Shown: positions 17,569-46,360, counted from the stretch's first letter. The stretch is 64,000 nt of DNA from Candidatus Saccharimonadota bacterium (GCA_043727115.1 JAYSZA010000043.1:975-64974); one strand, 5' to 3'. A program made the numbers and translations. Notes: generated by a model not told the origin, from the letters alone.

Positions 17569-17569
17569 T

Positions 17570-20379: not shown

Positions 20380-20412
20380 GGGCAACTCATCTATAATGAT
20401 ACAAGACTTTTC

Positions 20413-25594: not shown

Positions 25595-27991
25595 TTAAAT
25601 TGGTGTTCCTGTCGTAAGCAGTCCTACGAAATCATTAGATAACGTCTTGATTTTGTTTTCTCCTCCCAAATTTACTAAAGAGCCCCAAGACTTTATTGGT
25701 CTTTTTTGTCCTGCAGCAATGTAGTAGATCGTTGTAGAGTCTTTAGTCTTAATAAACCTTGTCAAAGAAGTATCTCTTTTCATATTTCGGGCTAGTAGCG
25801 GGTCTAGTTGGGTAAGAGATGATGGGGTAAATCCATACTCTGAAGCTATTGTCGAGCTAGCGGTATGCAAAATTCCATCATCGGCTACAAACACAACATT
25901 AGTTGCATTTTTGTATACCGCAGGAAGGTTCCCTGAGTTTGCGTATGCTGCTAGAGTTTGACTATTTACAGTATGTACACTGTTCCAGATATAACCAAAA
26001 TCTTCAAATCTATTTGCACTTTCTATGCCTAGTCTAGAGGTGGCGCCTGAAACAACATAAATAGAGCTGTTGGTTGCACTTTTAAGCAAATCCCCTGGAG
26101 CAAACTTCAATGGTCCACCAGGTATCTTCATAAATACTATTGAAGGAATTTCAGAAATATCGCCCAAATCATACCCTAGTTTACTGAATGTTTCATAGCT
26201 AACCATTGATCTAAGAGCTCCATTCTCTAGTACTGCTAGAGAATTTCCCCCAGCGTTCTTTATCACTGGTTTTAAGATAGCGTCAGGAAGTTTATTTATG
26301 ATTGTATCACTGAGTTTTGATGGCTGAAGCCCATGACCTGTCGCAAGTGGGTACTTTGAGGCACCATTCATAATGTATGTATTGCCAGATGATTTTTTAA
26401 CTAGACAATTTGCTGAGTTTTGAGCGATACCGTTTGTCATACTAAACGATGCTACTGTAAACTTCTTTATGTTCTTTAGCCCTAAACAATTGTAAGTATC
26501 GATACTATTTACCGGATAATAGCTGGTGCCGTTATAAATTCTAACCGTGCTGGAGTTGTTTGCTACTAGGTAGTCATTATCTACTAGAGGGATACCATGA
26601 CCAAGATTTTCAAGTGTATAGTCGCTTACCTTCGATAGGTTGCTGCTAGCTAATAGTTCATTTAGTTTAGAGATTTCAAATATAATTCTTTTTTTACTGT
26701 TTTCAATTTTATAGACAGTAGTATTGGCAAAACCCACCACAACGTCAGAAAGATTTTCAGGAGAAGTGACAAGTCTACTTATGGCATCCCCAGACATAAC
26801 TACAATGTCCTCACTCCCAAAACCAAAATTCTCTAGAGAGGACCAAGAACTTATCGGGAACTTATAGCCAGCACTAACTAAATATATCGTGCTCGCATCT
26901 GGAGTTTTAACAAGCCTACCAATAGACGAATTGTATGGTGTTGTGGCGTTTGGAATAGCGTCGATTTCTTGTTGACTAACAAAACGTACATCATTCAGTC
27001 CAAGTCCGAATTCATTTGCAATAATCATTGAAGGGATCGTGTGTTTTCTGGAACCGTCGGTATAGTATAGCGAATTTGATGTTTCAGTTCTGATTAAGCT
27101 ACCTGTAGTAGGGCCAAACCAATCACTAAACATGCGCCAGAAATTTCGATTACCATAAGCTCCACACCCATCACCACTACCATATAAATTATCTAGTGCC
27201 GATTGATTTGGCTGGTATGGAGTGTATATGTATAAGCTTGCAGTTGCTTGATTCTGTATGTACACGTTTGAGCCAGTCGGGTTTGGGCAAGAGGTCGTTG
27301 CAGGGCTGTAGTAGATAAAATTATTTCTGTGCTTTTTGTAATTGAAACCATTGGGGTTTGCCTCATACCGCCGAAATGCCTTAGCGGCCTGATAAACCTG
27401 GTTAAAGAAGCCGTAGTATTCATCGTTACAGTCCAGAGGTTGGCCCGGTGGCGGATCTGGACATCCATACCCCATTGCAATTCTGTACTGAGACGACCAA
27501 GGCCAGTCGTCTGATATAAGACTCTGTTCCTTCTGTAGCATCACAATTAAAACTTGTGGATTTATGTCGCAAGCTTTTGAAGCATCAAAAATAATCTGAG
27601 CAGCTGATTTCGTACCACCAGCGATACTATTTTTACATAAGTCACTACCCCCATTTGTAATTGATGGAATTGTTTCCATATAATCTTTAATACAAGTATA
27701 GGGTGGCGGATATCCTTTTGATGTACCGTGCTCTGCTCTGGTAGTGCTTCCGCTGTAGATTTTATTCCCATTTGTGTCACAGCTAGGTACTTTAGAGCTA
27801 AGAAAAGCCTGTATCTGATCAGTAGTCATTGAGTAACTGTTATAGAAAATTGCATCATCAATAATATTACCCGCTTTGAATTGTGATCCACTCAATCCAT
27901 AGACGGCTGTAGTCTGTGCAATAGTAAGTATTCCAACCGAGAATACCAGTGTGTATATCATTTTTTTTATTGAACTCTTATAGTCAAGCAT
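25595..27991 (-). CDS. large secreted protein: signal peptide + Cys-containing N-terminal domain (possibly lysozyme-like) + 8 copies of a ~45-aa repeat module
   Basis: 798 aa. The N-terminal domain contains ...DINPQVLIVMLQKEQSLISDDWPW.... Eight repeats follow, with core [ST]x[IV]Y[LYV][IV]xxGxK[RY]xIxSxxxFxxxG[FY]. Confidence 0.7.
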   Translation of the reverse strand: MLDYKSSIKKMIYTLVFSVGILTIAQTTAVYGLSGSQFKAGNIIDDAIFYNSYSMTTDQIQAFLSSKVPSCDTNGNKIYSGSTTRAEHGTSKGYPPPYTCIKDYMETIPSITNGGSDLCKNSIAGGTKSAAQIIFDASKACDINPQVLIVMLQKEQSLISDDWPWSSQYRIAMGYGCPDPPPGQPLDCNDEYYGFFNQVYQAAKAFRRYEANPNGFNYKKHRNNFIYYSPATTSCPNPTGSNVYIQNQATASLYIYTPYQPNQSALDNLYGSGDGCGAYGNRNFWRMFSDWFGPTTGSLIRTETSNSLYYTDGSRKHTIPSMIIANEFGLGLNDVRFVSQQEIDAIPNATTPYNSSIGRLVKTPDASTIYLVSAGYKFPISSWSSLENFGFGSEDIVVMSGDAISRLVTSPENLSDVVVGFANTTVYKIENSKKRIIFEISKLNELLASSNLSKVSDYTLENLGHGIPLVDNDYLVANNSSTVRIYNGTSYYPVNSIDTYNCLGLKNIKKFTVASFSMTNGIAQNSANCLVKKSSGNTYIMNGASKYPLATGHGLQPSKLSDTIINKLPDAILKPVIKNAGGNSLAVLENGALRSMVSYETFSKLGYDLGDISEIPSIVFMKIPGGPLKFAPGDLLKSATNSSIYVVSGATSRLGIESANRFEDFGYIWNSVHTVNSQTLAAYANSGNLPAVYKNATNVVFVADDGILHTASSTIASEYGFTPSSLTQLDPLLARNMKRDTSLTRFIKTKDSTTIYYIAAGQKRPIKSWGSLVNLGGENKIKTLSNDFVGLLTTGTPI

Positions 27992-27996
27992 AATAT

Positions 27997-28527
27997 TTAC
28001 TGAATCTCCAGAGAACTTGATGCACTACCATAATAATTATTTGATTTATACGAAACCACGACATCCCATTTACCACTTAGGTTGAAGTTATCCTGACTAA
28101 TATCTTCTATATTGCAGATAGTACTACTTGCATCTGGGTAGGCAGGTGCCTTAAAAGTTTCTTCTTCTCCATCTTTACTAAAAACAACAGTACATTCTCC
28201 TTCTTGAAGGGTCTGTGGCATAAATGCTCGCACCTCTATGAAATCACCATACTGACCAGCGTCTGCTATGACAACGGTGACATTGACCGGAGAACTTGCA
28301 GTGCTACTTGGCTTTTGCTGAGCGACACTTGGTTGATCGTCCTTGATGTCATTACCTGCCTGAACTTCAATTGCGGTAGGCGGATTATAATTTATACTAT
28401 CAGTTTCAGCGGTTTTGGTGGGGGTATTCTTCTCAGACATCGTAAAAAAAGCAACAATACCAAAAATTAAAATGACTAGAATTAGAAGAGACAAATATAC
28501 CACAGATTTTTTTGAAGTTTTATACAT
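27997..28527 (-). CDS. hypothetical N-terminally anchored small exported protein
   Basis: 176 aa. A TM segment (VVYLSLLILVILIFGIVAFF) precedes an extracytoplasmic domain with two Cys. The gene is 5 nt downstream of the large repeat protein. Confidence 0.5.
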   Translation of the reverse strand: MYKTSKKSVVYLSLLILVILIFGIVAFFTMSEKNTPTKTAETDSINYNPPTAIEVQAGNDIKDDQPSVAQQKPSSTASSPVNVTVVIADAGQYGDFIEVRAFMPQTLQEGECTVVFSKDGEEETFKAPAYPDASSTICNIEDISQDNFNLSGKWDVVVSYKSNNYYGSASSSLEIQ

Positions 28528-28622
28528 ATGTTTATTTTAACACTAACGCTTATAACTTATTTATATTATCATAATTATTAACTTTAGTCCAGTTCGCTAC
28601 ATTTTCTGTATAATAAACTGAG

Positions 28623-29966
28623 ATGTTAAAAAAAATAATGTTCTTTATAAAGGTTAATCCACAGTATCTTATATATACATACTGGCTTTTAATAGTTGGT
28701 TTTATTGCATTTGCGATTGATTATGCAATAGTTCCCGACGAGGCGGTTCACTTTACTGCTGTAGAGTATTATTCTAGACACACACCAAACCCTTTCCTGT
28801 CTGAACAATCAGACTCATTTAATGCAGGACAGCTTACTAGACTCGGTTCGTATATTTATTACTATCTTATGGGTTTTGTCTATAACTTTGGTATTTTCAT
28901 AAACAAAAATCCGCTCATACTCGTAAGACTTCTAAGTGCTTTATTTAGCCTAGGGACATTAATCTACCTAAATAAAATCGCAGACCTATTAAGGGTTGAG
29001 AAAAAAATAAAGCTTGCAGCGTTGTTTTTGATTGCAAACTTACCGATGTTTCTAATAATATCAGCAGGTGTAAATTACGATTCACTTTCAATATTTGTAT
29101 CAACGCTAATCGCATACCATTTTATCCAACTTTCTAAGAAGTTTACTGTATATCGTAGTCTTATCCTGTTTAATTTGATTATCTTGGCACCGCTTGTTAA
29201 ATTTTCTCTTGCACCAATTTCTCTTGTAGCTGTCGCATCATACGCCATATTGTTTTTTACACGGGCTAAATCCAAGAAAAAAAACAAAAATATTAAAACA
29301 AAAGAAAAAATTATAATCTCAAGTCTACTCATAGCTTTAGTAATTATTTCAGGGATACTCATTGAGAGGTATGTAATAAACTACATTGATTATGGTGTAT
29401 TTAACCCCGTATGCGATCAAGTTTTAACAAAAGAACAATGCGCAAGTAATTTTGTTTACCAAAGAGATCAGCAGTATATTGACGCACAACTTCAGCAGCC
29501 AACTATAAACTACATTCACTACACAGCTCAGTGGTTACAGATAATGAATGCGCGTACGTATGGAGTGCTTGCTCATAACAATTTCATTGATAACTACACA
29601 GTTATTTATACTGGACTTCTTATTTCTATAGTGCTTGTACTTATGTTTATTCGTAGGTTTATGTTAACTAGAAAAAACATGTACATTGCAGTTGTAGCAG
29701 TATTCTACACCGCAGTTTTAATTTATGTGAATGCTGGTGGGTATGAGCGTTCGCAGCAAATTGGGCTTGCCGTTCAGGGAAGGTACTTATTTCCAGTAGC
29801 ATTTATCTTCACACTATTGACACTATCCTTGTATACCAAGGAATTTAATAAAATTAGAGCTAGTTTCGCGTATAAACTACTTATAATTTTGTTGATAACG
29901 TTTGCACTATTAGCCGGACCGTTTAATCTATATTACGGAACAAATAGCACATGGTGGTTTAGATAA
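28623..29966 (+). CDS. polytopic membrane protein, DUF2142-like (putative GT-C type glycosyltransferase), paralog of 34452-35921
   Basis: 447 aa with about 11 TM segments. N-terminal loop VPDEAVHFTAVEYY. The C-terminus QGRYLFPVAFIFTLLTLSLY parallels the 34452 paralog. Confidence 0.5.
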   Translation: MLKKIMFFIKVNPQYLIYTYWLLIVGFIAFAIDYAIVPDEAVHFTAVEYYSRHTPNPFLSEQSDSFNAGQLTRLGSYIYYYLMGFVYNFGIFINKNPLILVRLLSALFSLGTLIYLNKIADLLRVEKKIKLAALFLIANLPMFLIISAGVNYDSLSIFVSTLIAYHFIQLSKKFTVYRSLILFNLIILAPLVKFSLAPISLVAVASYAILFFTRAKSKKKNKNIKTKEKIIISSLLIALVIISGILIERYVINYIDYGVFNPVCDQVLTKEQCASNFVYQRDQQYIDAQLQQPTINYIHYTAQWLQIMNARTYGVLAHNNFIDNYTVIYTGLLISIVLVLMFIRRFMLTRKNMYIAVVAVFYTAVLIYVNAGGYERSQQIGLAVQGRYLFPVAFIFTLLTLSLYTKEFNKIRASFAYKLLIILLITFALLAGPFNLYYGTNSTWWFR

Positions 29967-30069
29967 TACTAGCCGATGTGTCAAAGATCCAGTATTAAAA
30001 CTTCAAGTACTTGCTTTTAGTAAAACTATATTTTGAGTGATTGGGTATAGACTGTAAACTGTGAACAAC

Positions 30070-31155
30070 ATGAAAAAAAATAGTAAAGTTTGCGTTGTTA
30101 CTTGTTACCGCCAGCCAAACTATGTAAGAGCCGTTGTGCTGCGTAAGTCAGTTGAAGCATCTGGATTTGAGTTGATTGTAGTAAAGAATAGGTACACAAG
30201 TATACTTAGATACCCAGAGGTTGCTATAAAACTGTTAATTTCAAGGTTTAAAAACAACCCAGACACGTATCTGGTTACGTTTAGAGGCTATGAAATCCTA
30301 CCCCTAGTACTAATAATTGGGATTGGTAAAAACATAATATTTGATGAGTTTATTAATTTGAGCGAATGGTTATTTTATGAGCACAAAATAATTCCCCCTA
30401 AATCACTGATTGCAAAGTGTTTTACAGGCTTGAATGCCTGGATTATGAATAAATCAGACGTCATCCTGGCTGACACGAGTTGTCACGCGAAGTTTAGTTC
30501 GAACCTAACAGGGATATCGAGAGAGAAGTATAGGGTTGTTCCAGTAAGTGCCGATGAGAGCATATTTTATCAACATATAAAAAAAACGAGCCTAAAACAT
30601 AAAGAATTCAAAGTGTTTTTTTATGGTTCAATGCTTCCACTGCATGGCTTGAAGTATATTCTTGAGTCAGCGGTAGATTTAAGTTCGTACAGACAAATTA
30701 AATTCGTTATTGTAGGGGGCAAGAATAAAACCCGCAAGTTGGTTGATGAGCATATACTGTTTGGAGCCCGTATCGAGTATATCGACTGGGTTCCCATAGA
30801 TAAACTCCCTGCATTAATAAATGATAGCGAACTTTGCTTGAGTGGCCCTTTTGGCGACACGGTACAGTCAAAACAGGTTATTACAGGCAAGACGTATCAA
30901 TTTATAGCAATGGGAAGGGTAGTGGTCATGGGTAGGATTGATAATATGAGTGGTTTTGAGGATAAGGTCAACTCTTTAATTATTGACCAGGGATCCTCTG
31001 CGAAACTGACTGAATCTATACTTTGGGCATATAAAAACAGAGACAAACTTAATGGTATTGAACTGAAGGCGAGACTACTCTACGATAATAAATATTCAAA
31101 TGAAGCGACAGCGAAAGTCATGAAGAAGATCTTGATGAACTTAGTTTTTGCTTGA
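30070..31155 (+). CDS. GT-B fold glycosyltransferase (GT1/GT4-like)
   Basis: The ORF track starts at GTG 30061; ATG 30070 (MKKNSKV) is preferred. The C-terminal half resembles a GT-B nucleotide-binding domain. Confidence 0.5.
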   Translation: MKKNSKVCVVTCYRQPNYVRAVVLRKSVEASGFELIVVKNRYTSILRYPEVAIKLLISRFKNNPDTYLVTFRGYEILPLVLIIGIGKNIIFDEFINLSEWLFYEHKIIPPKSLIAKCFTGLNAWIMNKSDVILADTSCHAKFSSNLTGISREKYRVVPVSADESIFYQHIKKTSLKHKEFKVFFYGSMLPLHGLKYILESAVDLSSYRQIKFVIVGGKNKTRKLVDEHILFGARIEYIDWVPIDKLPALINDSELCLSGPFGDTVQSKQVITGKTYQFIAMGRVVVMGRIDNMSGFEDKVNSLIIDQGSSAKLTESILWAYKNRDKLNGIELKARLLYDNKYSNEATAKVMKKILMNLVFA

Positions 31156-31996
31156 AATGTAGACTACTTGAAAGAACAAAAAGCCCCAGCAAGAATAGAA
31201 AGTATATTGATCGATCCAAAACACTCGCTGCAATTACTTGTTCGCTTGGGATTTTATGTAGTGACTGCGAAAGTAGTATGAATGATTCCCTGATTCCTAT
31301 AGCCCCCGGTGTAAATGCCACAAAGAGAGCTAGATTCGCACTACCAGTGTAGGTTATTACCGATACTACACTAGGGCTAGGACCAACAACACCTATTTCA
31401 ATGTAGTATATTATGGTAACCAATGCTAGCTGTGATGCTGTGATGAAAAATATCTTGTTAATTATGTTATATGAATAGCCAAATACTGAACCTTTAGTAC
31501 GTGCAATTATCAGGCAGGCTACAACTCCAAGTGACGATAGAAGTAAAATTATTGGTTTGCTAGAAAATAGCATAATTAAACTTAAAACACCAAAAGCTAC
31601 ATAATAGACAACACTTACAAGGGAGTAGTCTTTAATTTTTATACCGTGTTTAGCTTTTAGGTATACAGCTCTATAACCTGGCCCACTTTGTAGGGGTCCA
31701 AAAAAATTCACAAGCGTTGAATATGCCGTCAGTAAGCCGGTTTCATAAAAAGATATTTCCTTTTTAAAATACTGAACTGTAGCTTTTGTAAGCATGAGAT
31801 TGGAAGAAAGGAAGAGGATGTACAGTAAAAGAATTAAACATAGTACTAAGATATTTATATTAGACAGAGGTTCCAATGCTCCAGGATTGTTTTTTATATA
31901 AAATACAAATGACAGAGAAAACAATACAAATAAAGTATAGCCAATATTTTTTCTTACGCGCTTATTTGTTAGTAGACTTAAAATTCTTTTTTTCAC
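31118..31996 (-). CDS. UPF0104/LPG-synthase-TM family flippase-like membrane protein
   Basis: 292 aa, 8 TM. The C-terminal motif TPGAIGIRESFILL matches the family-conserved TPGGLGVxE. Confidence 0.6.
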   Translation of the reverse strand: MKKRILSLLTNKRVRKNIGYTLFVLFSLSFVFYIKNNPGALEPLSNINILVLCLILLLYILFLSSNLMLTKATVQYFKKEISFYETGLLTAYSTLVNFFGPLQSGPGYRAVYLKAKHGIKIKDYSLVSVVYYVAFGVLSLIMLFSSKPIILLLSSLGVVACLIIARTKGSVFGYSYNIINKIFFITASQLALVTIIYYIEIGVVGPSPSVVSVITYTGSANLALFVAFTPGAIGIRESFILLSQSLHKIPSEQVIAASVLDRSIYFLFLLGLFVLSSSLHFKQKLSSSRSSS

Positions 31997-32741
31997 AGAG
32001 AACCAGGTACCCTTCTGAAAGATCTGAACTGTTAAATAGTTTACTAAACCAATAGAACGGTGTGATAAATATTTCTAGATCAAATTTGTATAAGAAACTA
32101 GGCGGTTTTACTGGGTTCACTCCACTGGCTTGTGTTCTAGTTTTCATATCCTTACGAGAAAGTCCGTTCTTATCTTTTGCCAGCACTCTTCTTAAATACC
32201 TAACTATGTCCGTAAAAGGAAAGCCATAGTTAGCAAAATTAACCACATTTAATTCACTAGATTCCAATAGTTTTTTGAGACCGTCTCTTTCGTATCTCCT
32301 GTAGTGACCAACCATCGTGTCCCATTCGTCAAAAAGTTTTTCTTTAGCAGGAACTGAAATAATGACGTATCTATTTGATAGTGCAACGAGTGTTTTGAGG
32401 AGTGCTCTGTCATCCTCTACATGCTCTAACACTTCGCAACTTATAACAAGATCGTATTTTTCTTTTCCCACTAGCTTGAAAGCATCTTGTTTTTTGAATT
32501 CAAGCGCTGTTTCACTAATCCCATATTTATCACGTAACGTATTGCCGGTTTCGATCGCTTTATCTGAGAAGTCTACGCCTTTTCCTGTTTTACCGAGACT
32601 TGCGATCGAACAGTCTAGTTCTCCAGCTCCACAGCCTACATCAATAAATGATTCGAAATCAATATTTTTTATCCACGACAAAATGTTCTTTTTTCTAAAT
32701 AAATAACGCGGTGCTTTAAAGAATGTATTATTTTTCGACAT
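31962..32741 (-). CDS. class I SAM-dependent methyltransferase
   Basis: Motif I IDVGCGAGELDCSIA, with the post-I acidic residue (VDFSD) and motif II YDLVISCEVLEHVED. Confidence 0.8.
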   Translation of the reverse strand: MSKNNTFFKAPRYLFRKKNILSWIKNIDFESFIDVGCGAGELDCSIASLGKTGKGVDFSDKAIETGNTLRDKYGISETALEFKKQDAFKLVGKEKYDLVISCEVLEHVEDDRALLKTLVALSNRYVIISVPAKEKLFDEWDTMVGHYRRYERDGLKKLLESSELNVVNFANYGFPFTDIVRYLRRVLAKDKNGLSRKDMKTRTQASGVNPVKPPSFLYKFDLEIFITPFYWFSKLFNSSDLSEGYLVLCEKKNFKSTNK

Positions 32742-32839
32742 TACTATTAATCATACAGCAAAGTTGTTAATTCAATTAAGAAATGTGTTGTGTAAAATTA
32801 CTAAAAAGTAATTTTTAGAGATATTTCTGGCATATTATG

Positions 32840-34339
32840 TTATTTGTAAATAAAAAAGTCTAATAATGGGTTCATTGGAGGCTCAATCATGGTTAATATA
32901 GTCGGGCTATTGCTTATCTGAAGTAAACTGTTATGGTCAAGATATTGCCAGAGCCATGTTTGCGCGAGATCACCTGCGGTTACCTGTTCTCTTCCGGAGT
33001 ATGTATATTCTGAATTGATATCGTCAGATTTTCCTGAATATGTTCTTCCATCTATAAATCTTGATTGCATATCGTTTTGCCGTTCTAGGTGGAGCTTCAT
33101 CCATGTTTCTGCATTAAATTTTTTATCAAGTTCCGCAGAATTTGCAAACACATCGAGCGCGAGATAGTTCGAAATACGGCCAGTCCCCCAGTCGTTTCCT
33201 TCAGGGAAATATATCTCGTAAGATCCTGGTGTGTAAACAGTCCCACCTGGTAAGGCATATTGAGGCGATGAATAATTGTTGAATATGAAAGATGAGTATA
33301 TTAAATCAGCATTCCATGATGATAGCAATAATCCTTGTCTACCAGCTAAATTTGTTAGTTGAACCCCGTTTAATTTAAGCGAAATATTACCCATGTATTC
33401 AGGTGACAATATACTATGGTTAATTACCGTACCGTCATCATGTACGTTCCATCCGTTAATCCATTCTTTTAGCGGTTTACCGTTTACTAGTTCTTCTGAA
33501 TCCGCGTCGGATTGTCGAGCATATGAGGCTATTTGAAGTTCAGCTTCAGCCGCCCTCCATTTATGTGCGTTTTTGTGTGTAGGCATCATTACTTTTGCAA
33601 TGCTAAGTACTGTTGAGTTCCATGCGTTCTCTTCCGCTTTAGTGTCACCAGGTGTAAGTATAACGTCGTCAGATGTTGCGTAGTAGGCGACCAAATCATT
33701 ACCCTTCGAGAGCTGGTAGTTAGCTTCACTTTCTACCACCATAGCAACAATTTGTCGTTCAGACGGAGTAAGATCGTCGTATAGTAACCATCCAGCTGTA
33801 CCAAAGTAAAACGCCCAATAAGAACTTTGCCAGCTATGGCCCCAAGTATCACCTTTGTTGCCGTTGTGAACCACGTGTTTTAGCGAAGCTCCTAGCAGTA
33901 GTTGTTTTGCGCGTATAATTGCGGATTTTTCTGATATACCAACCTCTTTTTCTACGTATGCACCGGTCTTAACCGCAACCGCAACCGCATAAGATGCTGT
34001 AGAGATTGCTCGTTGATCTATACCATTTGGTTTTATAGGTCCCGTTTGATTACCGAAACAGTAGGGATACCAGGTTTTAAGTGTGTATTTAATGCTATTT
34101 GAAAAACTCAATCGTATAGATTTGTTTATTTTTCCAGTAGGTCTAGCTAAATTAATGTTCTTTGGCGGACTGATTGAAAGACTAGAATCGATTTCTGGTG
34201 GGTTGGGATTGGATCCAGAGACTCTAGTATGGGGACATTCGATGGGGGGTTCAACAGATAGAGCTACACCTGGAGCAGTATTTAAGGTAGTCGCCAGCAT
34301 CACTACGCATAAGCACAGTATTTTTTTTATTGAAATCAT
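32840..34339 (-). CDS. secreted hypothetical protein (possibly glycan-modifying)
   Basis: Start taken at MISIKKILCLCVVMLATT (signal peptide); the ORF track begins at GTG 34360. The mature ~480-aa domain is rich in aromatic residues. No catalytic motif was assigned. Confidence 0.5.
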   Translation of the reverse strand: MISIKKILCLCVVMLATTLNTAPGVALSVEPPIECPHTRVSGSNPNPPEIDSSLSISPPKNINLARPTGKINKSIRLSFSNSIKYTLKTWYPYCFGNQTGPIKPNGIDQRAISTASYAVAVAVKTGAYVEKEVGISEKSAIIRAKQLLLGASLKHVVHNGNKGDTWGHSWQSSYWAFYFGTAGWLLYDDLTPSERQIVAMVVESEANYQLSKGNDLVAYYATSDDVILTPGDTKAEENAWNSTVLSIAKVMMPTHKNAHKWRAAEAELQIASYARQSDADSEELVNGKPLKEWINGWNVHDDGTVINHSILSPEYMGNISLKLNGVQLTNLAGRQGLLLSSWNADLIYSSFIFNNYSSPQYALPGGTVYTPGSYEIYFPEGNDWGTGRISNYLALDVFANSAELDKKFNAETWMKLHLERQNDMQSRFIDGRTYSGKSDDINSEYTYSGREQVTAGDLAQTWLWQYLDHNSLLQISNSPTILTMIEPPMNPLLDFFIYK

Positions 34340-34451
34340 AATTATAATTTTCTCACACACCGTGACGTATATCTATCACATTGAGTAGAATATTTTGGAG
34401 TTTACATATAAATTTAGAAAATGACTCATTTGGCTGTAATATTAAGATTAT

Positions 34452-35921
34452 ATGTCATGGAGAAATACACTAAGATCGTTGTTTAAGAGTAATTATTTTT
34501 ATATATTTATTATAGTATCTTTTATTTTATCTAGTCTTTTCGTAGCTACAATTACAAAATTTGATGTACCTCATGATGAAAGGTATCATTTTACGCTTGT
34601 GAAGCGTTTTGTGCATGAGGTAGACCCGTTTATAAACGAATTTGTAAGTGGTGATGAATTCTTCGGAGACATACAACGGAATCCTTCAATTATGTATCAC
34701 TACTTATTAAGTAAGCCTTTATATGTAGTAGAGAACATATCTCAGAATGAAGTACATCAAATATTATTTTTGCGACTGGTCAACATAATTATTGCAGTAA
34801 TTTCACTTGTTGTCGTCAGGAAATTAGCTCTAAAAGTATCTAGCTCAAAAGCCATTGCTAATCTTGTCATGGGAATGACAGCTTATAGTACGATATTTAT
34901 TTTTATATCAAGTGCGATATCTTATGATAATTTATTTGTTTTACTATTCCTCCTCTCATTCTATTTCTCAGTTGATCTAATTGAAAATAAAAATAAACCT
35001 AGATCTTTTTTTATACTTCTGGCTATATGTTTGTTTGGTTCATTGGTTAAGCAATCGTTCTTAATATTTGGCTTTTTGTATGCAGTATTTTTTATATTCC
35101 TATACTTTAAGACAGGTGTACGCTTAATAAAGCACCCGAAAAACGGCTTCTTTTTATATAGCGTAATTTTATTGGGAAAATTCACAAAAACAAATAAAAT
35201 CCTTGTTGTGTGCACTCTGATACTCGTAGGGATGTTTATGGAGCGTTATGGCATTAATGTGATTAGATATGGAACCCCACTGCCAGACTGTAGTCAAGTA
35301 CACACACTCGATGTATGTAATGAGTGGCCAGCGTATGCTAGGAACACTAATCTAAAGCAAACACTCGAAAGTCGGTCGATCAGCATGAACTTCCTGGGAT
35401 ACGCGGATTATTGGCTAGATGAAATAAGGGGCAGGACAAATGGTGTATATACTGGTTGGGATGTGAAGCATGACACGTTACTAATTAGATTGTTCATGTT
35501 GTTTTCACCGATTGTTACGTTTTATCTATTGATTGTTAACAATAAAAAATACAAAAAACTAAAATGGATAATTTTAGCAATATTTATAACAGTTGGTTTT
35601 TCCGCATTTCTGCTGCTACATAACTACACTTCATATATTAATTACAGGCATCCTGTCGCTATACAGGCTAGGTATTTGATGCCGGTACTCCCGATTATCT
35701 ACCTAACTATCATTTTTGTCATTAGTAAATCAATAAAAACAAAATCTGGTCAATCTTTGTTCTATACTATTGTTGCGGTTTGCTTCCTGACTTCAGGTAT
35801 TATTTCGTACATTCAGCTCACGAGTGGCCCGTGGTATAGAAGTGATAAACGAGTAGACTCATTGGTGCGTACCTCTAAGAGATTGGTAAGACCACTTAAC
35901 GTACTAATCGTTAAAGACTAA
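34452..35921 (+). CDS. polytopic membrane protein, DUF2142-like, paralog of 28623-29966
   Basis: 489 aa with about 12 TM segments. N-terminal loop FDVPHDERYHFTLVKRF and C-terminal QARYLMPVLPIIYLTIIFVI are shared with the paralog. Confidence 0.5.
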   Translation: MSWRNTLRSLFKSNYFYIFIIVSFILSSLFVATITKFDVPHDERYHFTLVKRFVHEVDPFINEFVSGDEFFGDIQRNPSIMYHYLLSKPLYVVENISQNEVHQILFLRLVNIIIAVISLVVVRKLALKVSSSKAIANLVMGMTAYSTIFIFISSAISYDNLFVLLFLLSFYFSVDLIENKNKPRSFFILLAICLFGSLVKQSFLIFGFLYAVFFIFLYFKTGVRLIKHPKNGFFLYSVILLGKFTKTNKILVVCTLILVGMFMERYGINVIRYGTPLPDCSQVHTLDVCNEWPAYARNTNLKQTLESRSISMNFLGYADYWLDEIRGRTNGVYTGWDVKHDTLLIRLFMLFSPIVTFYLLIVNNKKYKKLKWIILAIFITVGFSAFLLLHNYTSYINYRHPVAIQARYLMPVLPIIYLTIIFVISKSIKTKSGQSLFYTIVAVCFLTSGIISYIQLTSGPWYRSDKRVDSLVRTSKRLVRPLNVLIVKD

Positions 35922-35942
35922 TAGTGTATTAGAATATTTTGA

Positions 35943-37217
35943 TTATATACCTATGCCTAAATAGGTAACGTTAGATTCTTCGCATTGTTTTTTTAACTCT
36001 GAGTGTTTGTTTCTGCCGTCTAGAAAAACCTGCGATGATTCAATTTTTTCTAGTGTAATGTTTTTAAATTCATCATGTGCTGTTGCTAAAACAATCACGT
36101 CTTGGTTTTCAAGAATTTCATCCAACGACGCATGGGTAGATTTATCGGGGAAGTATGGATCATAAGTAGATATTTCTGCATTACGTTCTTTGAGCGTGCT
36201 TATAACAGTTTTTGAGGGGCTTTCACGATCGTCACCTACATTTGCCTTGTAAGAAAGTCCTAATATGGCTACTCTTTTATTCTTTAAGCTACCCAAACCC
36301 TTTTCAATAAGTGTTTTTTCGACTGTGTCGATGGCATAGATTGGCATGTTTTCATTGATTGAACGTGCTAATTTCAAGAAATGATGATCAAAGCCGCGGC
36401 CTTTTGCATATTCAATTAGGTAGTAAGGATCAACCGGTATACAGTGGCCACCAACGCCAATTCCCGGATAATGGGCCATGAAAGCGAACGGTTTTGTTGC
36501 GGCGCCATCTATGACATTCACTACATTTATACCAAGTTTTTCAAAAGACATCGCCAGCTCATTAACGAATGCGATATTGATATCTCTAAATGAATTTTCT
36601 ACAATTTTTACTGCTTCTGCTTCTTTAAGATTACTCATTTTTTTAATTTTTGCGTTAACTAAAGTAGAGTAGAATTCGTATGCAATTTCTAACGCCTCGT
36701 TAGAGTTTGCGCCTAGGACGCGGTTAATATTGCCAACATGCCATTTTGAGTCGCCTGGGTTAATGCGCTCTGGGCAGTGTGCGATATGAAGCGTTTTGCC
36801 TATCTTGTGATTCGTAGCCGATTCGATCGCCGGAATTATTACTTCGTCACATACGCCTGGGTTAATCGTTGACTCTATGACAAGCAATGACCCATCTTTA
36901 AGATTTTTTGCAGCGCTTACCGAGGCGTTTGTGACAATAGACAGATCGGGTATTTTATTGGCGTCAACAGGTGTGGGGACGCAAATAATTGCTATGTCTA
37001 CGTTAGAAATACTTGAAAAATCATCGGTGAATCTGATTTTACTTTTTTGAAGTCTATTTTCTGCTTCAGCATCATCAATTGGTGATATTTTTTTTATAAG
37101 TTGTGCTAGTTTTTTCTTGCTTTGGTCCACTCCAACAACTTGAAATCCTTTTTCTTCGGCCAATAGAGCAAGTGGCAATCCGACATAACCAAGCCCAATA
37201 ATTGCAATGTTTTTCAC
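35943..37217 (-). CDS. nucleotide-sugar dehydrogenase (UDP-glucose/GDP-mannose dehydrogenase family)
   Basis: N-terminal Rossmann motif IAIIGLGYVGLPLA. GHCIPVDP contains the family's catalytic Cys region. SYKANVGDDRESPS is the C-terminal UDP-binding motif. Confidence 0.85.
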   Translation of the reverse strand: MKNIAIIGLGYVGLPLALLAEEKGFQVVGVDQSKKKLAQLIKKISPIDDAEAENRLQKSKIRFTDDFSSISNVDIAIICVPTPVDANKIPDLSIVTNASVSAAKNLKDGSLLVIESTINPGVCDEVIIPAIESATNHKIGKTLHIAHCPERINPGDSKWHVGNINRVLGANSNEALEIAYEFYSTLVNAKIKKMSNLKEAEAVKIVENSFRDINIAFVNELAMSFEKLGINVVNVIDGAATKPFAFMAHYPGIGVGGHCIPVDPYYLIEYAKGRGFDHHFLKLARSINENMPIYAIDTVEKTLIEKGLGSLKNKRVAILGLSYKANVGDDRESPSKTVISTLKERNAEISTYDPYFPDKSTHASLDEILENQDVIVLATAHDEFKNITLEKIESSQVFLDGRNKHSELKKQCEESNVTYLGIGI

Positions 37218-37260
37218 TTACACTAGATTATAACCTAAATAACAGATACAATACAGTGTA

Positions 37261-38229
37261 ATGAAGTTAGTAATTTTTACCATCTGTAAAGATGAGGCTG
37301 GAACCATAGCTGAGCTATTAAATAGAATGCCCAAGAAAATTCATGGTGTTTCGACTATTGAAACGCTAGTAGTTAGTGATGGGAGTACGGACGATACAGT
37401 TAAGATTGCACAACAAAAAGGTGCAACAGATGTAATTGAAGGAATAAAACAAAAGAGATTAGCATACAGATTCCAACAAGCAATAGATAGAGCCCTCACT
37501 ATGGGTGCAGATTATGTGGTCAATATAGATGGTGATTTACAGTTCTCACCAGAAGATATCCCCAAGCTCCTTAAGCCTATCATTGAAGGCAAGGCTGACT
37601 TTGTAGCAGCAGACAGGTTTACGGACATAGAAACTGGCACTAGACGAAGGCCAGTGAACATGCCAAAAGCAAAATATTGGGCCAACCGACTTGGCGCATG
37701 GATAGTTGGTAATCTTTCAGGAGAATCTTTCCGTGATGTTACATGCGGGTTTAGAGCCTATAACAAAAAAGCAATGATAGCAATAAATATCAACAGCAAC
37801 TACACATATACTCAAGAGTCATTCCAGGTGTTAGCTTTAAAGAAGCTGAATATTGTGTCTATGCCGATAGATGTAAAATATTATCCCGGCAGAAAAAGTA
37901 GGGTTGTGCGTAGTTTTTGGCAATTTCTTTTCGGAAGTGCACTAAATATACTTCGTGCGTACAGGGATTATGCTCCGCTAAGATTTTTTGGAACATTGAG
38001 CCTTGTTACGATAATTCCAGGATTGTTATTAGGATCGTTCGTGTCGTTTAACTGGGCATCGACGGGAAGTATTAGTCCTTATATTGCATTTGGAATAATG
38101 TCTCTATTTATGACCTCTATTGGTCTTGCATTTGGAATATTAGGGCTTGTTGCTGATATGTTTGATCGAATGTTGAACAATCAAGAAAAAATTATAGAAG
38201 AACTAAAAACACAAAAATATAAAAAATAG
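37261..38229 (+). CDS. GT2 glycosyltransferase with C-terminal TM helices (polyprenyl-phosphate glycosyltransferase-like)
   Basis: VVSDGSTDDT, NIDGDLQFSP (DxD). Two C-terminal TM segments as in GtrB/ArnC. Confidence 0.75.
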   Translation: MKLVIFTICKDEAGTIAELLNRMPKKIHGVSTIETLVVSDGSTDDTVKIAQQKGATDVIEGIKQKRLAYRFQQAIDRALTMGADYVVNIDGDLQFSPEDIPKLLKPIIEGKADFVAADRFTDIETGTRRRPVNMPKAKYWANRLGAWIVGNLSGESFRDVTCGFRAYNKKAMIAININSNYTYTQESFQVLALKKLNIVSMPIDVKYYPGRKSRVVRSFWQFLFGSALNILRAYRDYAPLRFFGTLSLVTIIPGLLLGSFVSFNWASTGSISPYIAFGIMSLFMTSIGLAFGILGLVADMFDRMLNNQEKIIEELKTQKYKK

Positions 38230-39087
38230 TTACACTAGATTCATTAGATATTCGCCGTAACCCGATTTCACGAGTGGTTCAGCAATTTTCTGTAACTGTT
38301 CTTGGTCAATTAATCCCTGTGTGTAGGCAATTTTCTCCGGACTACCAATTATTTGCCCAGTTCTTTTTTGGATAACACGAACATAATCAGTAGCATCGCT
38401 AAGGCTATCAATAGTTCCTGTATCCAGCCATACATCGCCATCATCCAGTGTTGTTACTTTTAGTTTTCCACGCTTTAAGTATTCTTCGTTAACTGCGGTA
38501 ATCTCTAGTTCGCCACGTTCACTCGGCTTGATATTTTTAGCGATTTCAATTACGTCATTATCATAGAAATATAGCCCCACAACAGCGTAATTAGATTTAG
38601 GGTTTGTCGGTTTTTCTTCTATAGATTTTGCTTTCAAATTTTCATCAAATTCTACTACACCATAACGTTCAGGGTCTGAAACCTGATAGGCAAATACGGT
38701 GCCACCATCTGGATCCGTGCAGGACTTTAGTGATTCATCGAGTTCATTGCCGTGGAATATGTTATCTCCAAGAACAAGAGCTACTTTGTCGTTACCGATA
38801 AAATCTTCACCGATAATGAAAGCTTGAGCGAGACCATCTGGAGATGGCTGTACAGCGTAGCTAAGACTGATGCCAAAATCAGAGCCATCGCCGAGTAATC
38901 GCTTGAATTGATCTTGCTCGTGTGGAGTCGTGATGATTAAAATATCACGAATTCCTGCTTGCATAAGTGTGCCAAGCGGATAATAAATCATAGGCTTGTC
39001 ATATATGGGGATTAGCTGCTTAGATATACCTTTGGTAATAGGATATAAACGTGTGCCTGAACCACCGGCTAGTATAATGCCTTTCAA
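38230..39087 (-). CDS. rmlA: glucose-1-phosphate thymidylyltransferase
   Basis: [38 protein letters not shown] is a canonical RmlA N-terminus. Confidence 0.95.
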
Positions 39088-39186
39088 AATTTTCTCCTTA
39101 TATTCAATTACAGTCTAACACCCTGTAATATCATTGTCATCGTATCCTTCACAACATATCAATATAATTTTGTTACAATCTATAGC

Positions 39187-41916
39187 ATGACCAACAAACT
39201 TACGCTTAGAATAATTTCAGGAGTGTTCATCTCTAGTATTTTTATAGCTTTACTATACGTAAGTGCAGCACAGGCTGCCACATGCACGATCACTGTTTTA
39301 AATACGAATACATCAGGGGCAGGTTCGTTCACTCAGGCACTAAACGATGCCAACGGATCTTCAAATATGGATGTTATCTGTTTTAACATTCCAGGGAGTG
39401 GTGTGAAAACCATAAACCTAACAGCACAGTTAGGTATATCTCAGCCAGTAGAGATTGATGGAACGACTCAGCCGGGATATTCAGGCGCACCATTGATAGA
39501 ATTATACGGTGGAAGTGCAAACGGTCTAGTTGTATCCTCTGGTGGGAATATCATCAGAGCAATAGCAGTAAATGGGTATGCCGCTGATGGGTTATTGCTT
39601 CAAGGCCCTGGCGGCAATACCGTTGTTGGTAGCTACTTTGGGTTGGGCCCCAACGGGATAAGCGATCGAGGTAATGGTGCAAGCGGCATAGGGATTTTAT
39701 CACCAAATAATATTATTGGTGGCTCTACTTCTACGGACAGGAATATTATTTCCGGTAACGGTGGCAACGGACTCGTTATTGGTGGAGCTGACGCCTCTGG
39801 AAATGTTATTAAGGGTAATTACTTTGGTACAAATGCAGCTGGTACAGCATCGGTTCCGAACAGTGGGGACGGGTTACTAATCAATGGTTCGTCGGGTAAT
39901 ACAGTTGGAGGCACGGATTCTGTTAACCCAACATCTTCATGTGTAGGTGCCTGTAACCTCTTCTCTGGTAATGGCGCAAACGGCGTAGGTATATGGCATT
40001 CTGGTGCATCTAGCAATACAGTAGTTGGTAACTATATAGGCGTAAAAGTTGACGGTCTAAGTGCACTACCCAATGGAGATATAGGATTAGAAATTCAAGA
40101 TGCATCGGGAAATACAGTCGGAGGCGTAACGGTAAATGAGCGTAATCTAATATCTGGTAATTTTGGAGCGGGGGTGTCAATTACGGGTATACCGAACGGA
40201 ATCGTTACTCAAAACAACATTATAAAAGGTAATTATATCGGTGTTAACAAACTTGGTAACTCTGCAATAAAAAATCATAAAATGGGAGTTAATATTGGCA
40301 CTCCTGCTGGTGGTAGTAACGCGGCAAAAAACAATCTTATAGGGGGTACTGACGGAGTGAGCCTTGGGGGTTCCTGTACTGGTGCTTGCAATGTTATTGC
40401 TGGCAACGGATGGAACGGAATTTATATAAGTGGACTGGACGGTGGCGACAACCAAGTACAAGGCAATTTTATTGGCGTGGGGGCAAGCGGAGGTTGGACA
40501 ATACCAAATTTGCTGGATGGCATAGGTATTGTTAACTCACCCAATAATAAATTCGGAGGCCCTATAAACAGCGCTCGCAATCTTATTTCTGGCAATGGCG
40601 GTTATGGTATCGCAATTGTCGGAAGTTATTCTACCGGTACAAGAATAGAGCGGAACTATATTGGTATCGCCACAGACTCTAATCCGATGCCTAATCAAAA
40701 GTCGGGAGTTGGAGTTGAGTCCGCTGTCGATACTGCAATGTTGACGAATTCTATTTATGGAAATGGGCAACTAGGGATAGATTTAGCAATAAATGGTATT
40801 ACTGCGAACGATGGCGGGGATGCGGACAGTGGCCCTAACAGGCTACAGAACTATCCAGTTTTATCATATGCATACTCAGCAGATGGCAACACAACGGTTT
40901 CGGGTATGTTAAATAGTAACGGAACTACCACTTACACAGTGCAATTCTTCAAAAGCCCATCATGTAATGGTGGTCAGTTTGCGGGATATGGTCAAGGCCA
41001 TACTTACATAGGTTCAAAAGTCGTCTCCACTGACGCAACTGGCAATACATCTTTCACAGCGGCGTTTGCTGGGCTAACAGAGAGCGGGTATGCAGTCACG
41101 GCAACAGCTACAAAGATGTATAACGGGTCTTTATATGAAACTTCGGAGTTTTCTAGATGTGTGCATATTCCGAGACAACATCCTGATGGGGCTGTGATTA
41201 CACCCGCAGGCAGCCCAAATCTATTCATGATTGAAAATGGAAAAACTAGAAAAATAGGGTCAGTAGAAGTATTGAGGAGCCACAACATAACCTCCCAAGA
41301 GATTAAGACAGCAACAACAAGCGACACGACATTTCCTGGAGGCAACGGCCTTTACTTTAGGGAGGGTACTGTCTTGAAGGGAAGTAGCCCAGATATATAT
41401 TTTATAGATCAGATTGGTCCCAATTCATACCAAAAACGCAAACTAACCTCGGGGGCAGCATTTAATGCACTAGGCTATAGCGCGTCAGATGTAATAACTG
41501 TACCGGATTCAGCGCTAGGTCTATCTTCCGGCTCATCAATGAGCACGTCTGCTTATCATCCAGATGGTACTTTAGTAAAAAGTCCGTCCGGAACAGTGTA
41601 TCTGATTATGGATGGGAAGAAGCGTCTCATAGGCTCACCAGGAGTCTTTGTATCGCATCGGTTTAGGGCTGTTGATATTAAATGGGCAACAGGCGGAGAT
41701 TTAGCCAGGTCATCTGGTGGAAATCTAGGTTATCGGGAAGGCGCATTAGTAAAGGGTTCTTCATCGACAATATATATAATTGATGATGATTCTGGGGTAA
41801 TCAAAAAAAGAAAAATAACGTCATCTAGCGCATTCGTAGAGCTTGGCTACTCCATTAATGAAGTAATTTCTATCCCGAATAATGAGTTACCACTTGCGAA
41901 CGGTGCTAATATATAG
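39187..41916 (+). CDS. secreted parallel beta-helix repeat protein with 4 C-terminal copies of the shared ~60-aa repeat
   Basis: 909 aa, with a signal peptide. There are dozens of PbH1-type turns (NxIxGNxxxGIxI / GGxxNxIxGNYIG). The C-terminus from ~41149 holds four repeats [HR]xxG[AT]L[IV]KxxxxxxIY[LFI]Ixx..KKRxIxSxxxFxxxGY. Confidence 0.8.
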   Translation: MTNKLTLRIISGVFISSIFIALLYVSAAQAATCTITVLNTNTSGAGSFTQALNDANGSSNMDVICFNIPGSGVKTINLTAQLGISQPVEIDGTTQPGYSGAPLIELYGGSANGLVVSSGGNIIRAIAVNGYAADGLLLQGPGGNTVVGSYFGLGPNGISDRGNGASGIGILSPNNIIGGSTSTDRNIISGNGGNGLVIGGADASGNVIKGNYFGTNAAGTASVPNSGDGLLINGSSGNTVGGTDSVNPTSSCVGACNLFSGNGANGVGIWHSGASSNTVVGNYIGVKVDGLSALPNGDIGLEIQDASGNTVGGVTVNERNLISGNFGAGVSITGIPNGIVTQNNIIKGNYIGVNKLGNSAIKNHKMGVNIGTPAGGSNAAKNNLIGGTDGVSLGGSCTGACNVIAGNGWNGIYISGLDGGDNQVQGNFIGVGASGGWTIPNLLDGIGIVNSPNNKFGGPINSARNLISGNGGYGIAIVGSYSTGTRIERNYIGIATDSNPMPNQKSGVGVESAVDTAMLTNSIYGNGQLGIDLAINGITANDGGDADSGPNRLQNYPVLSYAYSADGNTTVSGMLNSNGTTTYTVQFFKSPSCNGGQFAGYGQGHTYIGSKVVSTDATGNTSFTAAFAGLTESGYAVTATATKMYNGSLYETSEFSRCVHIPRQHPDGAVITPAGSPNLFMIENGKTRKIGSVEVLRSHNITSQEIKTATTSDTTFPGGNGLYFREGTVLKGSSPDIYFIDQIGPNSYQKRKLTSGAAFNALGYSASDVITVPDSALGLSSGSSMSTSAYHPDGTLVKSPSGTVYLIMDGKKRLIGSPGVFVSHRFRAVDIKWATGGDLARSSGGNLGYREGALVKGSSSTIYIIDDDSGVIKKRKITSSSAFVELGYSINEVISIPNNELPLANGANI

Positions 41917-41928
41917 GTAGGAGGTGTT

Positions 41929-42867
41929 ATGAAAAAGCTACAAGTTTTCCTAATATCAATGTTGAGTTTTATAACTCCAATAGCCTTATCTTTAGGTTCT
42001 GCTGGTGCACTTGTTCGGCCTTCAGGAATGATAGTTCAGGATTCTGGTGGCGCATATTATTATACTTACTACACGCCAGGGACGAGCTACTCAGATCCTA
42101 GATTAAAATATATCGGACATGGAGAAGTGCTGAGTTATTATCAGAATAGAAACAGAAAAGCCTACACTATAACAGACACCGAAAAATCAGGCTATACAGT
42201 GCATAATCATAATTTAACCTTTCCTTGCGGCGAAGCTGCTAGAGATCAGTACGGGAAAATTGCGTTTTTTGAACCACTTGGGTGGCCTCCTGGTGCACAA
42301 GATCAAGGTGACCCCGTCTTTTCTTATGCAGAGAATTTTCCACAATATGTTGGCTTTGTAAACTGGGACCACTCAGGCAGTACAGGATCTCATCATCAGG
42401 ATATTCTGAAAGAGAGTGGATATAATCAAATATCTACGGTTGATGGACTGCCAGAGGGAGTAACCGGTGGTATTTACCCGGGGGGAGTACCTAACTGCGT
42501 AATAGTAAAGCAGACAAATTCACCAGACTATTACAGAGTATTTAGACACCAGACACCCACAGCAGTAGAAGTGGAAAGAAAAGTAAAAATACAGACACCC
42601 GAAATACTCGATTTATGGACAAATTTCAATAGTTATACCTACGAAACAGATATCACATCACTTCCGAGTGTAGGTAGCGCTAAAATGCCTCCAGGACTAC
42701 TGGTAAGAACTATTGCAAATTCAAATGTATATTTCACAGACGATGAGGGATATAAAGTTCTCATACCAACTCAAGCAAAATTTGATGAGTTAGGTTTCAA
42801 CCCAGGCGACGTAACAATCGTGGAACAATCAACACTAAATACTACCCCCACAAAGATTTTGTACTAA
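41929..42867 (+). CDS. secreted protein with one C-terminal copy of the shared repeat
   Basis: 312 aa. RBS GGAGG, signal peptide. The C-terminal LVRTIANSNVYFTDDEGYKVLIPTQAKFDELGFNPGDVTIV matches the repeat in the two neighbouring big proteins. Confidence 0.7.
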   Translation: MKKLQVFLISMLSFITPIALSLGSAGALVRPSGMIVQDSGGAYYYTYYTPGTSYSDPRLKYIGHGEVLSYYQNRNRKAYTITDTEKSGYTVHNHNLTFPCGEAARDQYGKIAFFEPLGWPPGAQDQGDPVFSYAENFPQYVGFVNWDHSGSTGSHHQDILKESGYNQISTVDGLPEGVTGGIYPGGVPNCVIVKQTNSPDYYRVFRHQTPTAVEVERKVKIQTPEILDLWTNFNSYTYETDITSLPSVGSAKMPPGLLVRTIANSNVYFTDDEGYKVLIPTQAKFDELGFNPGDVTIVEQSTLNTTPTKILY

Positions 42868-44743: not shown

Positions 44744-44746
44744 AGT

Positions 44747-45319: not shown

Positions 45320-45322
45320 AAT

Positions 45323-46360
<1,038 letters not shown>

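Follow-up and report, generated by a model that had tools for sequence, protein, structure and literature searches.

Open reading frames (ORFs) A, B, and C of the 64,000-nucleotide stretch of DNA analyzed here, hereafter called the window (Candidatus Saccharimonadota bacterium, GCA_043727115.1 JAYSZA010000043.1:975-64974), encode three proteins with N-terminal hydrophobic, signal-like segments and between one and nine C-terminal copies of the same repeat, and the closest described counterparts of this repeat are found in a mycobacterial secretion system and in phage lysins. The periplasmic part of EccB1 contains four repeats of ∼51 to 57 residues, each consisting of a four-stranded β sheet and two α helices and resembling PlyCB, and binding of these repeats to peptidoglycan was put forward by the authors as a mere hint, with no test (PMC4769845). 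PlyCB binds streptococcal wall polysaccharides at their polyrhamnose backbone (bioRxiv 10.1101/2021.03.19.436156). The wall-binding domain of LysIME-EF1 is likewise a four-stranded sheet, with a helix capping each side, and must form a tetramer for lysis (PMC7098653). The fold, its use by phage lysins, and the structure of the EccB repeats are already known.

In predicted models, the window repeat has the same small fold as R1 to R4 of EccB (PDB 3x3m, 4kk7, and 5cyu; contained in PF05108 and TIGR03919). EccB, however, is a membrane-anchored secretion subunit with its four repeats placed around a central β-sheet domain, whereas in the window the repeats form tandem C-terminal arrays on secreted proteins. 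PlyCB (PDB 4f87, from the streptococcal phage lysin PlyC) shares the fold with no detectable sequence similarity and is a separate polypeptide that assembles noncovalently into an octameric ring, while the window copies are covalently linked in one chain. In LysIME-EF1 (6ist) and Lys170 (7d55), both Enterococcus phage endolysins, extra copies of the domain arise from an internal start codon and lead to a tetramer, where the window has tandem repeats. The fold being known, the repeat counts as a tandem variant of it and not as a wholly new kind, but it represents a large family without a curated model of its own. No curated model or paper was found that recognizes it as a free-standing, very widespread tandem repeat on peptidoglycan hydrolases; the literature searched held no description of this module outside EccB.

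The repeats of A, B, and C were delineated manually and then aligned with MAFFT. The unit is ∼57 residues long (range, ∼48 to 66 amino acids [aa]), with 14 copies in the window. Since the pairwise identity between copies is just 12 to 47%, significance was judged with cross-validated hidden Markov models (HMMs). Among the six-frame ORFs of the window, an HMM of the A copies only found B at E = 9.7e-11 and C at 1.2e-6, and one of the B copies only found A at 6.5e-14 and C at 9.8e-4, with no further six-frame ORF of the 64 kb scoring better than E ∼0.09. An outside-family HMM, made from the repeats of 83 other proteins that lack the N-terminal domain of A and do not come from the window, although they were gathered with a profile that includes the window repeats, recovered A at 2.6e-54, B at 5e-46, and C at 4e-12, and the best of the remaining window ORFs had an E value of 0.13. 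The 14 window copies aligned with 62 repeats of the outside proteins in hhalign with a probability of 99.2% (E = 2.5e-19). The three ORFs and their parts are as follows.

25595-27991, minus strand: ORF A, 798 aa; a signal/anchor helix is followed by a GH73-like peptidoglycan glycosidase domain and nine repeats (aa 297-798, 25598-27103)
27104-27904, minus strand: A aa 30-296, N-terminal catalytic-type domain, lysozyme-like/GH73-like
26921-27103, minus strand: repeat A1, aa 297-357; HMM matches, modeled as β-β-β-α-β-α
26747-26920, minus strand: repeat A2, aa 358-415
26582-26746, minus strand: repeat A3, aa 416-470; HMM matches and model
26411-26581, minus strand: repeat A4, aa 471-527; degenerate, HMM and model, below significance with the outside-family HMM but of the same modeled secondary structure
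26267-26410, minus strand: repeat A5, aa 528-575; the shortest and most degenerate, HMM and model
26096-26266, minus strand: repeat A6, aa 576-632; HMM matches and model
25922-26095, minus strand: repeat A7, aa 633-690; HMM matches and model
25763-25921, minus strand: repeat A8, aa 691-743; degenerate, HMM and model, missed by the iterated and outside-family HMMs
25598-25762, minus strand: repeat A9, aa 744-798; C-terminal, HMM matches and model
39187-41916, plus strand: ORF B, 909 aa; a signal peptide, then a putative parallel β-helix, a middle domain without a family assignment, and four repeats (aa 665-909, 41179-41913)
41179-41358, plus strand: repeat B1, type a, aa 665-724; HMM, 40% identical to B3
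41359-41556, plus strand: repeat B2, type b, aa 725-790; HMM, 47% identical to B4
41557-41733, plus strand: repeat B3, type a, aa 791-849; HMM
41734-41913, plus strand: repeat B4, type b, aa 850-909; HMM, matches phrog_9616 together with B3
41929-42867, plus strand: ORF C, 312 aa; signal peptide, N-terminal domain of ∼220 aa without a family match, and one confident repeat
42688-42864, plus strand: repeat C1, aa 254-312; E = 3.3e-6 with the A-only HMM and 8.8e-11 with the outside-family HMM

A preliminary description of this DNA had reported the three secreted ORFs, and all of them are present where it placed them. Its copy counts of eight, four, and one stand for B and C and have to be raised to nine for A; the array of A does not begin at ∼26854, copy 1 and part of copy 2 having been missed. 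The consensus motif given there is a fair summary of the repeat when set against the positions conserved across the wider family (G1, L3, V11-Y12, G17, K19-R20, I22, F28, G32-[YF]33, W35, and G52, with the basic pair K19-R20 sitting in strand 3), and the periodicity survives proper alignment and cross-validation as the ∼57-residue unit. The proposal that one module is carried by unrelated N-terminal domains is likewise supported. Two additional weak repeat-like stretches in C (∼aa 33-46 and ∼218-230) were not significant with the outside-family HMM.

An AlphaFold2 model of the whole of A, built on an alignment of 114 A-family sequences, reached a mean predicted local distance difference test score (pLDDT) of 93.5 and a predicted template modeling score (pTM) of 0.73. 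Every A repeat was modeled as strand-strand-strand-helix-strand-helix, several copies adding a short fifth β-strand after the last helix. Across the models the order per unit is the same (E-E-E-H-E-H, E for strand and H for helix; pLDDT, 89 to 97), and a single repeat modeled from 68 diverse copies had the identical fold with a pLDDT of 89.2. The unit is therefore predicted to be a small α/β domain in which a three-stranded meander is followed by a helix, a fourth strand, and another helix, and this fits the description of R1 to R4 of EccB, ∼50 to 57 residues with a four-stranded β-sheet and two α-helices.

A Foldseek search of the PDB with the whole of A returned EccB of mycobacterial type VII (ESX) secretion as all of its 11 best matches (E = 8.9e-9 to 7.8e-6 over ∼417 to 443 aligned columns). 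When the structural neighbors of the repeat were ranked, EccB1 (3x3m_A) came first, with a root mean square deviation of 1.7 Å over 56 of 59 residues, 18% identity, and a table value of 6.7 (the values of this table are unlabeled), followed by the Streptococcus mutans structural-genomics domain 3l9a (4.6), PlyCB (4.6), and LysIME-EF1's cell-wall-binding domain (4.5), with that of Lys170 in seventh place (3.7). The same set of neighbors was recovered with whole A as the query. Of all solved folds, the EccB repeats are the one on which the repeat superposes best, and it shares its fold with the wall-binding domains of PlyCB, LysIME-EF1, and Lys170. For the predicted models, we take the common fold with the EccB repeats as established; common ancestry with them is likely but unproven.

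Curated sequence libraries leave the repeat unassigned, as the preliminary description had it: none of the three proteins had a match in Pfam-A or NCBIfam, even with the threshold relaxed to E ≤ 1, and the LysM, SH3b, SLH, CW_binding_1, CWB2, PG_binding_1, SPOR, and GW families of Pfam were likewise without a match at that threshold. The suggestion of a new domain holds insofar as the repeat has no curated model of its own and was too strong in that the fold is that of EccB R1 to R4 and PlyCB. That description had also named, as a result that would count against it, a mapping of the repeat to a known wall-binding or otherwise named family, and such a mapping now exists in part through the folds of EccB (PF05108/TIGR03919), PlyCB, LysIME-EF1, and Lys170 and through phrog_9616. 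This last family, from PHROGs, has 118 profile positions that correspond to two repeats, and B3 and B4 together (B aa 792-904, 41560-41898) match it almost end to end at E = 3e-10, while a doubled consensus repeat of the family reaches 5.5e-16. phrog_9616 carries no functional annotation and might be a wall-binding subunit that, like PlyCB, has a gene of its own.

Among the 83 outside proteins, 15 pass the whole-protein cutoff of PF05108 (best E = 8.8e-17) at profile positions 159-249, that is, in R2, and the TIGR03919 matches of these relatives fall in the R2 and R4 regions; for neither model is any single stretch significant. Profiles of this short repeat give whole-sequence E values of 1e-3 to 1e-8 against leucine-rich repeat (LRR) and designed "Pizza" propeller proteins purely by summing partial matches of ∼15 to 30 residues, and because of this summing the whole-protein E values of repeat-versus-repeat matches, those with PF05108 and TIGR03919 included, are not taken at face value. 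Two other assignments were rejected. The matches with LGR4/5 and designed LRRs were sums over the second half of the repeat, covering ∼20 to 30 of the 57 to 59 profile positions, and those with the "Pizza"/NHL propeller in the PDB profile search were also only summed partial ones, over ∼15 to 30 residues of the repeat; both are regarded as artefacts because they disagree with the 57-aa period and with the modeled α/β fold, which is no solenoid of the 20- to 30-residue LxxLxLxxN units that define LRRs. Nor are A, B, and C EccB proteins themselves: the N-terminal domain is GH73-like in A, those parts of B and C are unrelated, no type VII secretion gene was seen among the scanned neighbors, and the EccB architecture (an N-terminal transmembrane helix, a central β-sheet domain flanked by R1 to R4, and eccC, eccD, and mycP as neighboring genes) is not found in any of the three. 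A reverse profile search of the PDB did not reach EccB, a search of PDB sequences with the whole-A family profile gave nothing useful, and a word-indexed search with the 14-repeat alignment was empty because the repeats are too divergent to share 5-mers.

The family proved to be very large. When 1.84 billion representatives (50% identity clusters) were searched exhaustively with the repeat profile in HMMER, 9,854 clusters were returned at E ≤ 1e-3, of which 4,787 also passed E ≤ 1e-10 and 1,109 passed E ≤ 1e-30, with up to 17 copies per protein and protein lengths of up to 3,254 aa. The domain partners were surveyed in the 134 newly returned proteins among the best 150 of the 9,854. The GH73-like domain of A is present in 51 of them, and the remaining 83, which lack it, were scanned with Pfam with the following result (proteins of 83).

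Amidase_2: 15
SpoIID: 14
Peptidase_S8: 8
Peptidase_M23: 5
BACON_2: 5
CHAP: 2
Glucosaminidase: 2
CAP: 2
RHS: 2
Cohesin: 1
Dockerin: 1

Individual members combine Amidase_2 with seven repeats (P0130), M23 with seven (P0144), CHAP with five (P0185), or CAP with eight (P0127). The repeat is physically joined to peptidoglycan-hydrolase domains in A (GH73-like), in an Amidase_2 protein of a related Saccharibacteria locus (L003, below), and across this census, and the partner spectrum is what wall-binding modules show. The family sits mostly on peptidoglycan hydrolases and stands out in Saccharibacteria, a group with poorly understood envelopes. Recognition of the repeat as EccB-repeat/PlyCB-type would give thousands of "hypothetical" proteins a testable wall-binding annotation and lends the proposed contact of the EccB repeats with the cell wall an independent, comparative line of support.

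The possible lysozyme-like domain that had been noted in A gained weight from structural comparison of the model, in which the N-terminal domain has a lysozyme-like fold with a catalytic-type Glu at a helix end and appears GH73-like. It matched neither PF01832 (Glucosaminidase) nor an SLT model, nor anything else in Pfam or NCBIfam, and is a distinct sequence family despite its GH73-like fold. Glu155 (27527-27529), in the motif LQKEQSL, is invariant across the 114 A-family sequences and is the obvious candidate for the catalytic residue. A search with full-length A in a collection of 5.8 billion proteins gave more than 4,321 homologues of ∼790 aa, those with a named source coming mostly from Candidatus Saccharibacteria; none of the full-length homologues listed had a precomputed Pfam domain, and one was named "hemagglutinin-related protein" by its source. 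Exact-sequence look-up returned no record for A or for C. In other proteins (P0061, P0076, P0100, P0116, and P0119), an A-type N-terminal domain is joined to NBR1-type immunoglobulin (Ig) repeats (PF16158) or to a bulb-lectin-like tail or occurs three times per chain, so this domain is itself modular.

The genes around A, B, and C are those of a wall-polysaccharide locus, in agreement with the preliminary description, which had placed the three genes inside one. The neighbors that bear on the argument are listed here.

20368-22410, plus strand: Wzm/Wzt glycan ATP-binding cassette (ABC) exporter (PF01061; PF00005 with PF14524, Wzt_C)
24303-25550, minus strand: WsaF-like glycosyltransferase next to A (PF22772/PF21374)
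27997-28527, minus strand: 176-aa membrane-anchored protein directly upstream of A; one N-terminal hydrophobic helix, no confident Pfam match
38230-39087, minus strand: rmlA, directly upstream of B (PF00483, E = 3.9e-75)
43372-46336, minus strand: rmlD, an ORF without assignment, rmlC, and rmlB, of the dTDP-rhamnose pathway (PF04321, PF00908, and PF16363)

WsaF is a rhamnosyltransferase. Further genes of the locus encode glycosyltransferases of families GT2 and GT4, PMT-like and DUF2142 membrane proteins, a UDP-glucose dehydrogenase, and a methyltransferase, and all of the scanned neighbors with a family match are glycan-synthesis or NUDIX genes. Orthologues of A with 47 and 43% identity were found in two other Saccharibacteria loci, L001 and L002, each behind a small protein of ∼180 aa. 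Both have a WsaF-like gene at a distance of two genes from the A-type gene, with an epimerase gene, GT2 genes, and wzm/wzt nearby; the dTDP-rhamnose genes are complete in L002, and L001 has a single rmlA-like gene. In L003, from a metagenome-assembled genome (MAG) of an uncultured Saccharibacteria member (CAYGIR010000010.1, 617-9689), four repeat genes are contiguous: an A-type gene, one for a protein with Amidase_2, a middle region without assignment, and four repeats, a C-type gene, and a B-type gene whose 902-aa product has the layout of B with four repeats. The C relative is 62% identical to C and lies directly upstream of the B-type ORF. In the window, ∼11 kb of glycan-synthesis genes separate A from the B/C pair, and there is no amidase-repeat gene. 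Equivalents of the 176-aa protein, 176 to 186 aa long, stand directly upstream of the A-type gene in L001 (9436-9996), L002 (9455-9994), and L003 (2982-3512), and this small protein is probably an operon partner of the A-type gene, perhaps as an anchor, a regulator, or a glycosidase inhibitor.

We favor, with a probability of about 0.6, the view that the repeat is a multivalent, noncovalent binding module for the cell wall, be it a glycopolymer or peptidoglycan. The tandem copies, nine in A and four in B, and the one copy in C would bind a wall glycopolymer, either peptidoglycan or the rhamnose-containing polysaccharide made by the locus, and the module would hold secreted wall-remodeling enzymes at the wall. 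A would be an autolysin resembling LytB of Streptococcus pneumoniae, a GH73 glucosaminidase that carries many choline-binding repeats, with a GH73-like glycosidase and a long wall-binding array, and the β-helix protein B and C, whose N-terminal domain has no match, would be targeted to the same surface. Avidity from tandem covalent copies may stand in for the ring oligomers of PlyCB and LysIME-EF1, which suggests that covalent arrays and phage-lysin rings are two routes to one avidity-based recognition of the wall. A wall-targeting role is suggested because A carries a GH73-like domain, the family has hydrolase partners, and the fold matches the wall-binding domains of phage lysins; the conserved basic pair K19-R20 also counts in its favor. 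On this view, A is a candidate major autolysin of Saccharibacteria tied to a rhamnose-polysaccharide locus.

As to the ligand, the rhamnose polymer rather than peptidoglycan is a tentative choice within the wall-binding view, held at clearly less than even odds. It has the indirect, analogical support that PlyCB, of the same fold, binds polyrhamnose and that A-type genes are kept in rhamnose/ABC-transporter glycan loci. A parallel is offered by the Enterococcus faecalis autolysin EpaU, which is encoded in a rhamnopolysaccharide locus and whose wall-binding domain binds that polymer (PMC13343894); A likewise lies in a polysaccharide locus. LytB and EpaU, a GH25 autolysin, resemble A in combining a wall glycosidase with a polymer-binding region, though by analogy only, as their binding modules belong to sequence families unrelated to the window repeat. 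On a plasmid of Priestia aryabhattai (NZ_CP129010.1; L005 2561-4192), a TagF-like CDP-glycerol glycerophosphotransferase ends in one canonical repeat (4001-4174, 60 bits), and its gene adjoins rfbB, rfbD, and an rmlC-family epimerase gene, which points in the same direction as the context in the window.

Several observations weigh against wall binding. The idea of binding by this family, or by the EccB repeats, rests on analogy. A4, A5, and A8 lack the K-R pair and score poorly, and the copies of A are conserved position by position across orthologues, a pattern that a rigid stalk would fit as well. Numerous partners fall outside the wall enzymes (S8 proteases, RHS toxins, CAP, and Ig domains), and the TagF-like protein of Priestia has no obvious signal peptide, so that its repeat may be cytoplasmic, in which case the module may bind a nascent glycopolymer rather than the assembled wall. 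The sequence links to PF05108 and TIGR03919 rest on summed weak repeat matches, the same summing effect having produced the false LRR and "Pizza" matches, and A, B, and C themselves do not match PF05108 at E ≤ 1. Finally, tblastn with one canonical four-repeat query found no match in 50,697 phage genomes (INPHARED).

A stalk or spacer, in which tandem units without a ligand build a stiff rod, as proposed for EccB, and hold the N-terminal enzyme out through or past the wall or surface layer (S-layer), is unlikely in our view but the best placed of the alternatives. [quoted passage not shown] A rod would, however, leave unexplained the strong bias toward peptidoglycan-hydrolase partners, the single copies of C and the Priestia TagF-like enzyme, and the stand-alone two-repeat phrog_9616, and the other characterized members of the fold are binding modules. 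Less probable still is a module directed at a host, whose repeats would bind the wall polymer of that other cell and bring the GH73-like enzyme, together with the amidase and the β-helix protein, to its surface for attachment or nutrient release. Saccharibacteria are described as episymbionts living attached to other bacteria (PMC11623550), some family members carry toxin-type (RHS and PT-TG) and protease partners, and PlyCB-type domains serve phages in recognizing the wall of a foreign cell. Yet in each of four independent Saccharibacteria contigs (the window, L001, L002, and L003) the A-type gene lies among the cell's own genes for glycan synthesis, like that of the self-directed EpaU, and the family extends beyond episymbionts, to the Priestia plasmid and to unclassified metagenome proteins. 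We give least credence, and very little, to a protein-protein assembly module by which the repeats would oligomerize or dock to an envelope protein such as an S-layer or the 176-aa membrane protein. Octameric and tetrameric rings are formed through this fold by the wall-binding domains of PlyCB, LysIME-EF1, and Lys170, one relative has a cohesin and another a dockerin, and the small membrane protein always precedes A; but in the phage lysins oligomerization serves wall binding and does not replace it, the cohesin and dockerin partners are single cases in the census, and no covarying partner was identified.

A bolder form of the wall-binding proposal, which we consider unlikely to about the same degree as the stalk or slightly more so, makes the module a lectin-like address tag specific for the rhamnose wall polysaccharide that would direct the envelope enzymes of Saccharibacteria (GH73-like glycosidase, amidase, β-helix protein, and C), and the EccB repeats would then also be this module and would fix the type VII machine to the actinobacterial wall polymer. 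The hosts of Saccharibacteria are typically Actinobacteria. If this were true and the tag recognized the polymer of the host instead of that of the cell itself, it would help to determine the specificity between episymbiont and host.

The array of B is a duplicated two-repeat unit, since the identities within type a (B1/B3) and type b (B2/B4) given above compare with 19 to 34% across types. The only close relative found in a search with the four repeats of B was a cohesin protein, also with four repeats. Eight N.I.GN motifs at aa 186-465 make a parallel β-helix plausible for the N-terminal part of B. Neither B nor C matched Pfam, NCBIfam, or PDB sequences, the separate searches of the PDB with their N-terminal parts included, and the only genome match for C was an uncultured Candidatus Saccharibacteria MAG. 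Between the putative β-helix and the repeats of B lies a segment of ∼120 aa (aa 541-664, 40807-41178; …LQNYPVL…TATATK…TSEFSRC) that is kept in the B-type ORF of L003 and belongs to no assigned family.

Two large ORFs of the window have no Pfam match, one of 506 aa with an N-terminal hydrophobic segment inside the glycan locus (32840-34360, minus strand) and one of 601 aa at its edge (17555-19360, plus strand). The best-scoring family member, P0122, with 17 repeats in 1,423 aa (L004 5001-9272, GCA_016840125.1), gave nothing useful against PDB sequences. Its gene neighbors look archaeal (DUF2095, a YGR210-like GTPase, and an OB_Ssb-like protein), and the repeat may therefore extend beyond Bacteria.

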